Shown: in pieces, positions 53,044 through 54,168 of the stretch
Layout of the letters: each line of letters opens with the position of its first letter
How positions within the stretch are numbered: position 1 is the first letter of the stretch
Origin: Adineta ricciae
Taxonomy: Eukaryota
Length of the DNA stretch: 64,000 bases
Direction of reading: 5' to 3'
Assembly: GCA_905250025.1 (NCBI GenBank)
Contig: CAJNOJ010000203.1
Location: 64,001-128,000 of the forward strand
Notes under the pieces: generated by a model
Told to the model about the DNA's origin: nothing
The model's database searches: none
What the model saw: the letters and a program-made list of their open reading frames with translations, nothing else
Made by a program: the position numbers and the translations under genes

Positions 53044-54168
53044 AATGAGAATAAATGTTCGTACACTAGAGGGAGATTCAATCACGTTAGATGTACAGCC
53101 CAATGATACAATCCGAAATGTGAAGAAAAAAATACAAAGTGCAAGACGTATTCGAGCACAATGTCAAAGACTAATGTTTGGAGAAGTACAGTTGAAAAAT
53201 AGCAAATTATTATCGAATTACGGAATTCAAGATGACGCCACGATTTCCCTTATTCGACGTAAGTGTCTAAAAGAAGATTAGTTGATCTGTAACGATTTTG
53301 AGTATCCACAGGAGTTGTTCAAGACGATAAAACTATTGCTGGTGGATATGGTGAGGGTGATGCTACTGACCAACTCTCCTATCCTTATGGTCTTGTTATT
53401 GACGACGACCAAACAATGATTATTGCAGATTGGGGAAACCATCGAATTGTTCAATGGAAAATAGACGAAGGAAACGGTAAAGTCATTGCCGGTGGACATG
53501 GAGAAGGAAGTGAACTAAATCAATTGAGTTATCCAACCGATGTTGTTATTGATCGTCAAAACAATAATATTATTATCTGCGATCGAGGAAATCGACGAGT
53601 GGTCCAATGGTCACGTGCAGAAGGCACTACTCAGGGTCATGTACTGATTGCTCACATTGACTGCTGGGGACTAGCAATCGATCATGAACGAAATCTTTAT
53701 GTCTCGGATATCGAAAAAAATGATGTTAAACGATATGTTATCGGAAATCCCGATGGAACTGTGGTTGCCGGTGGCAATGGACGAGGAATTGGACTTAATC
53801 AACTCAATCAACCATCATATCTGTTCGTTACCCCACAACAGACCCTCTATATATCAGACACATGGAACCATCGCGTGATGAAATGGGAGAAAGATGCCGG
53901 GGAAGGCAGTATCTTCGGTCGTGGCTTTTCACGAGGGATAGCTATCGATGCGACTGGTAATATCTATGTTGCAGATTATGGAAATCATCAACTCGTACGT
54001 ATGCTTGGAGGAGCGAACCCAAGCACGGTTATTGTAATCGGAAATAGAGAGAAGGAAGAAGAAGAAAACCAATTATACTACCCATGGGGTTTAACTTTAG
54101 ATCAGCAAGGCCGCATTTATGTTACCGATCATTTAAACCATCGTATACAACGTTTTCCCACTACATAA
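53044..54168 (+). CDS. Ubiquitin-like domain fused to a six-bladed NHL-repeat beta-propeller (2 exons: 53044-53270, 53312-54168)
   Basis: Exon 1 [31 protein letters not shown]…QRLMFGEVQLKNSKLLSNYGIQDDATISLIRR aligns with ubiquitin [31 protein letters not shown]…[32 protein letters not shown]. Intron gtaagt…ccacag. Exon 2 has six NHL-type repeats (…LSYPTDVVIDRQNNNIIICDRGNRRVVQW…, …IYVADYGNHQLVRM…, …IYVTDHLNHRIQRF). Confidence 0.75.

Follow-up and report, generated by a model that had tools for sequence, protein, structure and literature searches.

In a TRIM ligase, the RING and the recognition domain are normally parts of one polypeptide. In the TRIM-NHL proteins (TRIM2, TRIM3, TRIM32/Thin, TRIM71/LIN-41, Brat and Mei-P26), a six-bladed NHL propeller serves as the recognition module in a ubiquitin-ligase context. 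Integral ubiquitin-like (UBL) domains, in turn, provide precedents for docking: the UBL of UHRF1 binds a ubiquitin-conjugating enzyme (E2), those of HOIL-1L and SHARPIN bind the UBA of HOIP, and those of Rad23, Dsk2, Ddi1 and midnolin bind the proteasome. Here we report on UBL-NHL, a gene in a stretch of 64,000 nucleotides (nt) of the bdelloid rotifer Adineta ricciae (contig CAJNOJ010000203.1, positions 64,001 to 128,000 of the forward strand). This whole stretch is called the window below; coordinates without a locus label refer to it, and other loci are given L numbers. UBL-NHL joins a ubiquitin-like domain to an NHL propeller, and beside it lies RBCC-LRR, a gene in which RING, B-box and coiled-coil (RBCC) segments are followed by leucine-rich repeats (LRRs). 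UBL-NHL combines its domains in a new way, its ligase partner is both atypical and conserved, and its locus is one half of a two-gene module that was found only in bdelloids by this search. Automatic annotation already labels UBL-NHL orthologs as uncharacterised UBL-containing proteins, and a search of the literature gave no description of a UBL-NHL protein, of a rotifer TRIM-LRR gene or of their pairing.

Structure of the UBL-NHL gene

UBL-NHL has two exons on the + strand and encodes a product of 356 amino acids (aa), in a window whose G+C content is 37%. Its parts are as follows.

53045 to 53258, + strand: exon 1 (214 nt), residues 1-71 and the first base of codon 72, holding the whole ubiquitin-like beta-grasp
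53259 to 53311, + strand: the sole intron (53 nt, GTAAGT...CACAG), of GT-AG type and phase 1
53312 to 54168, + strand: exon 2, with a linker of 6-7 residues, the NHL propeller (residues 79-353, from nt 53332) and the stop codon
54215 to 54220, + strand: AATAAA, a likely poly(A) signal read from the sequence, beginning 47 nt past the stop codon

A preliminary description of this DNA had placed the start of the gene at 53044; the gene itself is borne out, with its ATG one base later, at 53045. The stop codon is the TAA at 54166-54168, and in an unspliced transcript termination would come after ...SLIRRKCLKED.

The best database match of the product is an annotated A. ricciae protein of 356 aa, automatically named 'Ubiquitin-like domain-containing protein', whose 94% identity over the full length backs the join of the two exons. 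The same protein is given by independent eukaryotic annotations (P0001, P0009 and P0010). We rebuilt UBL-NHL from eight other loci, which come from A. ricciae, Rotaria magnacalcarata, Rotaria sp. Silwood2, Didymodactylos carnosus and four environmental or unidentified contigs, and obtained proteins of 355-360 aa throughout. The intron lies at the same codon and in phase 1 in seven loci besides the window (L001, L002, L006, L007, L012, L013 and L016), where its length ranges from 51 to 1365 nt. In the metagenome contig L011, UBL-NHL is an intronless, uninterrupted open reading frame (ORF) that contains both Pfam domains, and therefore both domains reside in one polypeptide without any assumption about splicing. 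Together, the phase-1 intron, its kept position and the contiguous ORF of L011 uphold the earlier proposal that a UBL exon is spliced to the exon of a six-bladed NHL propeller.

Comparison between lineages gave ratios of nonsynonymous to synonymous divergence (dN/dS) of 0.10-0.29, with dN of 0.15-0.46 and a dS that is saturated (0.6 to above 2), and purifying constraint was seen on the UBL and the propeller alike. That the UBL exon and the NHL ORF come from different genes, or that the gene is a pseudogene, is hardly credible in the light of these data. The exon join is read from genomic sequence, and prokaryotic gene callers split the two exons into separate ORFs on metagenome contigs; but the phase-compatible intron at an identical position in eight loci (window included), the single ORF of L011, the selection on both parts and the agreement of the independent annotations have effectively refuted such an artefact of annotation or reading already. 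The sequence evidence confirms UBL-NHL as a real bdelloid-rotifer gene, in which a non-conjugatable copy of ubiquitin is fused to a six-bladed NHL propeller.

As for existing gene models, the one deposited for D. carnosus (P0018, 317 aa; L006 2470-3602) omits the middle of the UBL. When just one intron of 59 nt is assumed, at the position kept elsewhere, this locus gives a complete protein of 357 aa.

The ubiquitin-like domain

The N-terminus of UBL-NHL matches the ubiquitin family of Pfam (PF00240) at residues 3-72 with an expectation value (E) of 6.1e-18 and 64.8 bits, against a cut-off of 25.4, and the closest relative of residues 1-78 in the PDB is ubiquitin (~60 bits, E ~1e-15). Residues 1-72 are identical to ubiquitin at 35 of 72 positions. 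Among the bdelloid orthologs this identity amounts to 49-63% (35-45/72), and in the divergent L011 to 40%. An AlphaFold2 model of the whole protein, made from 50 homologs, has a mean predicted local distance difference test score (pLDDT) of 91.5 and a predicted template-modelling score (pTM) of 0.88. In this model, residues 1-72 adopt the beta-grasp fold of the ubiquitin family, with strands at 2-7, 12-16, 41-45 and 66-71 and helices at 23-34 and 56-59 (pLDDT 85-94); a short linker of lower confidence follows, and then 24 strands that form six four-stranded blades. The check by structure prediction that the preliminary description had called for thus supports its arrangement of a UBL followed by a propeller.

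None of the nine UBL-NHL orthologs has Gly-Gly at positions 75-76, the C-terminal pair that marks conjugatable modifiers and cleavable ubiquitin fusions, and because of this the ubiquitin domain of UBL-NHL can be neither conjugated nor cleaved off. Past the fold the sequence runs on as ...SLIRR-VVQDDKTIAGG, in which the AGG belongs to the first strand of propeller blade 1; blades 2 and 4 have this motif again at the equivalent place, as do NHL-only paralogs. It would be tempting to see here a ubiquitin-fusion precursor like Ub-L40 or Ub-S27a, from which deubiquitinases release a free NHL protein, since the UBL is clearly derived from ubiquitin proper and an AGG motif stands 7-10 residues past the fold. 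We regard this as very improbable, in view of the missing Gly-Gly, of the place of (V/I)AGG within repeated blade strands, and of the identity of 40-63% where a released ubiquitin would be expected to be near-identical. The Pfam match, the modelled beta-grasp and the absence of Gly-Gly are all in line with the integral, non-conjugatable ubiquitin fold that had been claimed earlier.

Ubiquitin binds its receptors through a hydrophobic surface of Leu8, Ile44 and Val70. The residues corresponding to this Ile44-type patch are L8, M44 and I70 in the window, all hydrophobic, and every bdelloid ortholog has L or F at position 8, M, V or I at 44, and I, V or M at 70. The same orthologs agree without exception in K27, R42 and R72 (L011 has V at 72), and the positions of K48 and K63 are variable or acidic and unconserved. 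This pattern fits ubiquitin-like recognition without use as a chain acceptor.

The NHL propeller

Pfam finds NHL repeats (PF01436) in four significant stretches, with E 1.7e-36 and 122.9 bits against a cut-off of 20. A Foldseek search of the PDB returned Pizza6 designs, Thin, TRIM2, TRIM3, TRIM71 and PknD with target template-modelling scores (TM-scores) of 0.76-0.89, those to the six-bladed Pizza6, TRIM2, TRIM3 and PknD being 0.81-0.89, so that the model and the structural comparison agree on six blades. The PDB sequence matches to the propeller likewise include TRIM71, Thin and PknD. No PDB entry spanning both the UBL and the NHL domain was found in the Foldseek search.

The propeller is acidic, with an isoelectric point of 5.2-6.5 in most UBL-NHL orthologs and 7.7 in L011. 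The RNA-binding propellers of Brat and TRIM71 have basic top surfaces, and RNA binding of their kind was judged less likely for UBL-NHL on account of its acidic propeller, although this is weak evidence. The protein begins directly with the first ubiquitin strand, whereas several NHL paralogs have a signal-peptide-like N-terminus instead; UBL-NHL, being without a signal peptide, is therefore probably cytosolic.

In a neighbour-joining tree (without bootstrap), the NHL domains of UBL-NHL proteins form one clade, comprising 30 of 113 rotifer NHL domains, and the gene is present in one to few copies per species. Metagenome proteins of ~60% identity that are named 'YvrE lactonase' might be taken as a sign of bacterial origin or horizontal transfer. 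We rejected this idea because these matches are not bacterial but exon-2 ORFs of rotifer UBL-NHL genes made by prokaryotic gene finders; at the same places the UBL exon is a small separate ORF just upstream and the RBCC gene lies just downstream. In the neighbour-joining tree they group with the UBL-NHL genes, inside the clade of 30. A word-indexed search with residues 1-149 scored 53 candidates and missed known orthologs, and an exhaustive HMMER search with residues 1-125 gave 30,819 matches, the top 150 of which were all poly-ubiquitin-like or multi-NHL; a restriction of UBL-NHL to bdelloids is not established by either search. A scan of metagenome contigs for UBL-NHL yielded mostly paralogs, and the apparent coverage of the UBL in L026 and L027 was rejected as a spurious extension into a coiled-coil region. 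L026 holds at 5683-7122 (and so does L027) an ORF of 479 aa with a Cys-rich N-terminus, a coiled coil and an NHL domain of the same expanded family; the Cys-rich part, unrecognised by Pfam, may be B-box-like.

The neighbouring RBCC-LRR gene

The gene on the other side of the UBL-NHL start codon lies on the opposite strand and is composed of the following parts.

51496 to 51739, - strand: exon 1, RING (PF13445, PF00097; residues 15-53)
51115 to 51437, - strand: exon 2, two B-box-type zinc fingers (PF00643, PF22586; residues 91-175), with frame-checked junctions
50465 to 51061, - strand: exon 3, coiled coil (by a TRIM3 match in the PDB) and first LRR cap
42704 to 50406, - strand: LRR region from an exon scan, 17 exons of 84 nt each and a second cap exon at 49858-49685

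Each of the 84-nt exons is in phase 0 and encodes one 28-residue LRR of NLR/RNI type, and Pfam recognises the array as LRR_6 (PF13516, E 1.6e-67) with at least 17 repeats. The assembled frame is 922 aa long and open throughout. A search for the 3' terminal exon was unsuccessful: past 42704 there is only decayed LRR sequence with stops near 42200.

The succession of RING, B-boxes and coiled coil is that of the TRIM/RBCC proteins, the coiled coil being assigned from the TRIM3 match. In the PDB, the closest relative of residues 141-274 is the B-box and coiled coil of TRIM3 (E 1.4e-13), and that of the RING is the RING of TRIM2 (E 5.6e-11). The C-terminus belongs to none of the described TRIM classes (SPRY, NHL, filamin, COS-FN3, PHD-bromo, ARF, MATH and transmembrane, TM) and is an LRR array instead; we know of no described TRIM class with an LRR C-terminus. 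RING, B-boxes, coiled coil and LRR_6 array together substantiate what had been claimed of this neighbour, namely that it is TRIM-type with a C-terminus of LRRs. A survey of TRIM proteins makes no mention of an LRR C-terminus (PMC3503706).

Of the eight ligand positions of the RING, seven are Cys or His, whereas the eighth is an Asp (ECPKxDG; 51575-51586, - strand) that is invariant in all nine orthologs; such a RING would be of C3HC3D type. A word-indexed database of 5.8 billion proteins yielded 23 matches to the RBCC, each of them a named bdelloid or an unnamed metagenome protein. The RBCC family is thus small, and it was found only in bdelloids by this search.

Two features of the repeat region may be added. 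Because the LRR exons are 84 nt long and in phase 0, their gain, loss or skipping leaves the reading frame intact. The second LRR cap exon (49685-49858, - strand) is a duplicate, at 43% identity, of the 58 residues with which the coiled-coil exon ends; it is conserved across lineages, with counterparts at L001 7032-7205, L006 5692-5859, L012 14712-14885, L013 18641-18910 and L016 12771-12935. RBCC-LRR holds two LRR cassettes, of 3 and 14 repeats, which could be alternative isoforms.

Conservation of the pair

An RBCC ortholog adjoins UBL-NHL in every locus with enough flank, the LRR exons having been checked in some of them only. Besides the window, the adjacent pair occurs in eight loci (L001, L002, L006, L012, L013, L016, L017 and L047). 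The loci of the pair are from A. ricciae (L001, L047), R. magnacalcarata (L002-L005), D. carnosus (L006), A. steineri (L017) and environmental contigs from three lineages (L012, L013/L015 and L016); L007-L010 and L048, whose downstream flank is too short, stand outside the count of adjacency. The partner of the window is 96% identical in its RING to that of A. ricciae L001, and between lineages the identity is 65-86% for the RING, 46-58% for the B-boxes and 39-51% for the coiled coil.

No other ORF of at least 90 aa in the window between 25 and 64 kilobases (kb) has a counterpart in L002-L016, except for one weak paralog match. L017 was left out of this search, and the flanks were compared by ORF-level tblastn, all-against-all tblastx being too noisy from repeat families. 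Furthermore, the pairwise identities of UBL-NHL and RBCC across loci are correlated with r = 0.95, as expected from inheritance of both genes as one unit, and adjacency by chance is unlikely because the RBCC family is so small (23 matches). Both genes are real and under purifying selection, and they have been neighbours since the divergence of the sampled bdelloid lineages. With an RBCC ortholog next to UBL-NHL across lineages and no other flanking gene in common, the suggestion of a plausible functional pair, made in the preliminary description, has gained support.

The orientation of the pair is more variable than its adjacency. In the window the genes are divergent, and between them lies one further feature.

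51740 to 53044, no strand assigned: intergenic region between the divergent start codons, 1305 nt

In six lineages the genes stand in tandem, with UBL-NHL upstream of RBCC on the same strand and gaps of 56, 147, 258, 482, 943 and 3680 nt from stop to ATG. The head-to-head orientation was found in Adineta copies only (window, L001 and L047), and even there A. steineri L017 is tandem. The head-to-head layout is thus derived within Adineta, and what the lineages have conserved is therefore not a shared promoter. The earlier picture of divergent genes 1.3 kb apart was right in its distance; as a conserved state it does not stand against six tandem lineages.

Within the intergenic region, a CT-rich, low-complexity segment of ~450 nt (52222-52672) is without a counterpart in L001, an indel between the two sequences, and a 22-nt imperfect direct repeat occurs at 52109 and 52235. 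Among the tandem loci, the gaps of L016 (10750-10807) and L002 (11158-11306), 56 and 147 nt with both genes on the same strand, are short enough to make polycistronic transcription with spliced-leader processing possible. Spliced-leader trans-splicing occurs in bdelloids.

Possible function of the pair

We suggest that UBL-NHL may act in trans as a recognition or adaptor subunit that docks on the E2 or the ubiquitin ligase (E3) of the neighbouring RBCC-LRR. We prefer this reading because the linkage is conserved, and hold it tentatively, with a chance somewhat short of even. RBCC-LRR is a TRIM-like E3 ligase with an NLR-type LRR array as its C-terminal recognition domain. The NHL propeller, a ligand-binding module tied to the UBL by a linker of 6-7 residues, would bind a target, and the ubiquitin mimic would dock UBL-NHL on a ubiquitin-binding surface, most likely that of the E2/E3 machinery of RBCC-LRR. 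In this way the pair could give one ligase two sensing domains, LRR and NHL.

Several points weigh against this proposal. The case for a functional pair is drawn entirely from sequence, a structural model and linkage. Among the database matches there is no fused 'Rosetta stone' protein that joins this RBCC to NHL or UBL, and Pfam finds no ubiquitin-binding domain of the UBA, UIM or CUE type in the RBCC-LRR protein. L011, the most divergent homolog, is without the hydrophobic patch (A8, A44 and N70), and where the patch is present it could equally serve proteasome receptors or pack against the propeller. Short intergenic distances hinder separation, so neutral retention of the linkage is possible. 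In addition, the UBL-NHL copy at L047 (contig CAJNOR010000820.1, 8595-9224) is a pseudogene with several stops and large deletions, lying head-to-head with a second RBCC copy that looks intact (RING 86% identical). Because of this pseudogene, pairing is not obligatory for each copy.

The main rival to docking on the RBCC-LRR ligase takes up several of these points. According to it, UBL-NHL would work on its own as a UBL adaptor or shuttle in the manner of Rad23, Dsk2, Ddi1 or midnolin, docking through its UBL on the proteasome or other ubiquitin receptors and handing over what the propeller has bound, and its linkage to RBCC-LRR would be neutral and kept by the short gap. Such a role agrees with a ubiquitin-like hydrophobic patch that is kept without conserved acceptor lysines, with the lack of a Pfam-detectable UBL-binding domain in RBCC-LRR, with a ligase gene that persists beside the UBL-NHL pseudogene of L047, and with tandem gaps that are often just 56-482 nt. 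It is harder to reconcile with an adjacency that outlasts the change of all other neighbours and an inversion in Adineta, that is found in divergent copies of one sample (L012 and L016), and that within Adineta alone is seen in both tandem (L017) and head-to-head (window and L001) loci. We consider an independent adaptor or shuttle possible, though on the unlikely side.

To return to docking on the neighbouring ligase, one could go further and regard the pair as a trans-assembled TRIM ligase, in which RBCC-LRR recruits a separate NHL domain via a ubiquitin-mimic handle on its E2/E3. This idea is speculative, and we think it rather unlikely. Operon-like co-transcription, where tandem loci have gaps of 56-258 nt, would agree with it, and, if true, the two genes would constitute a two-gene sensor, a way of recognising targets that is specific to bdelloids and might serve innate immunity. 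Expansions of the NHL, LRR and TPR families have been reported from A. vaga, and for LRR and NHL the same paper suggests roles such as defence (PMC3846280). A role of the pair in surveillance or innate immunity is plausible because LRR and NHL are expanded in bdelloids and this expansion has been discussed together with defence.

An atypical TRIM, with LRR where SPRY or NHL would stand, that travels with a separate propeller protein whose one other domain is a ubiquitin mimic would be a natural experiment in attaching recognition modules to E3 ligases, and the pair would offer a handle on the large, functionally unexplored NHL and LRR expansions of bdelloids. If the two genes are unrelated in function, UBL-NHL would simply be one more lineage-specific domain combination.

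Flanking sequence

From 42.8 to 64 kb the window runs collinear with L001 of A. ricciae, at 88-96% nucleotide identity. This identity is mosaic, rising from ~88% (42.8-46.5 kb) through 91.6% (46.5-52.2 kb) and 94.5% (52.7-54.4 kb) to 95.8% (54.8-64 kb), and the ORFs at 61.7-64 kb have 100% protein identity to L001. Such mosaic divergence could mean that two closely related species are compared, or else two haplotypes in which gene conversion has left tracts.

Downstream of UBL-NHL, a single-exon gene at 54396-56444 (+ strand) encodes 682 aa with an ADP-ribosyltransferase (ART) toxin-type domain (PF03496, E 1.7e-5) and TPR; the A. ricciae contig has it too, but in other lineages it is missing from the surroundings of the pair. 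Seven more 84-nt LRR exons make up a second array at 62424-63339 (- strand). Its counterpart in the A. ricciae annotation is a protein with B-box, LRR and carbonic-anhydrase parts, a distant paralog of RBCC-LRR whose B-box is 24% identical. In L016, an ankyrin-repeat ORF with a C-terminal ubiquitin-family domain (3236-4327; PF00240, E 1.6e-24) is located 5 kb upstream of UBL-NHL, which is another case of a ubiquitin-like domain on a repeat scaffold.

Comparison with known systems

The propeller of UBL-NHL matches those of TRIM-NHL proteins in structure (TM-scores 0.76-0.83). The architecture differs, since the propeller is off the RBCC chain and stands behind a UBL in a separate gene, and the RBCC carries LRRs; UBL-NHL itself has no RBCC N-terminal to its NHL in one chain, the arrangement of the TRIM-NHL proteins (class VII TRIM). 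The preliminary description had seen in the pair a domain-shuffled TRIM-NHL system split across two genes; taken literally, an ancestral TRIM-NHL gene would have been split, its NHL going to the UBL gene and its RBCC gaining LRRs. Indeed, the closest PDB relatives of the RBCC, TRIM3 and TRIM2, are TRIM-NHL proteins, TRIM71 and Thin/TRIM32 are among the best natural PDB relatives of the NHL, and in L026 an NHL of this family follows an N-terminus that is Cys-rich and coiled-coil. Yet the propeller has 48-56% identity to those of rotifer paralogs whose N-termini are unrelated (signal-peptide-like, ART, caspase and Apple) and, by structural alignment, is just 21-24% identical to the NHLs of TRIM2/3/71, with bacterial PknD scoring similarly. 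Moreover, the ancestral order, NHL gene and then RBCC gene, is the reverse of the TRIM-NHL domain order, and no intermediate form was found. The evidence against a split TRIM-NHL is stronger than that for it; we consider it improbable.

Closer relatives of the propeller are found in a bdelloid-expanded NHL family, to whose large expansion it belongs. This family includes NHL-only proteins (some of them signal-peptide-like), ART-NHL, caspase-NHL and Apple-NHL, and has the blade motifs (V/I)AGGxGxGxxxNQL and DxxNHR(V/I)xxW in common with UBL-NHL. UBL-NHL is set apart by its UBL N-terminus, its own clade, its one to few copies per species where the family has dozens, and its fixed RBCC-LRR neighbour.

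With the integral UBLs of UHRF1, HOIL-1L, SHARPIN, Rad23, Dsk2, Ddi1, midnolin and parkin, UBL-NHL shares an N-terminal, non-cleavable beta-grasp with an Ile44-type patch, joined to a module that binds targets. Its UBL is much closer to ubiquitin (49-63%; L011 40%) than most integral UBLs, and to our knowledge none of those proteins is fused to an NHL propeller. As for the remodelling of a TRIM, NHLRC1/malin, with a RING and six NHL repeats, offers a parallel, being an E3 of TRIM origin whose layout departs from the usual RBCC-NHL (PMC3503706). Unlike the pair described here, malin has its RING and NHL in one chain, without UBL or LRR.

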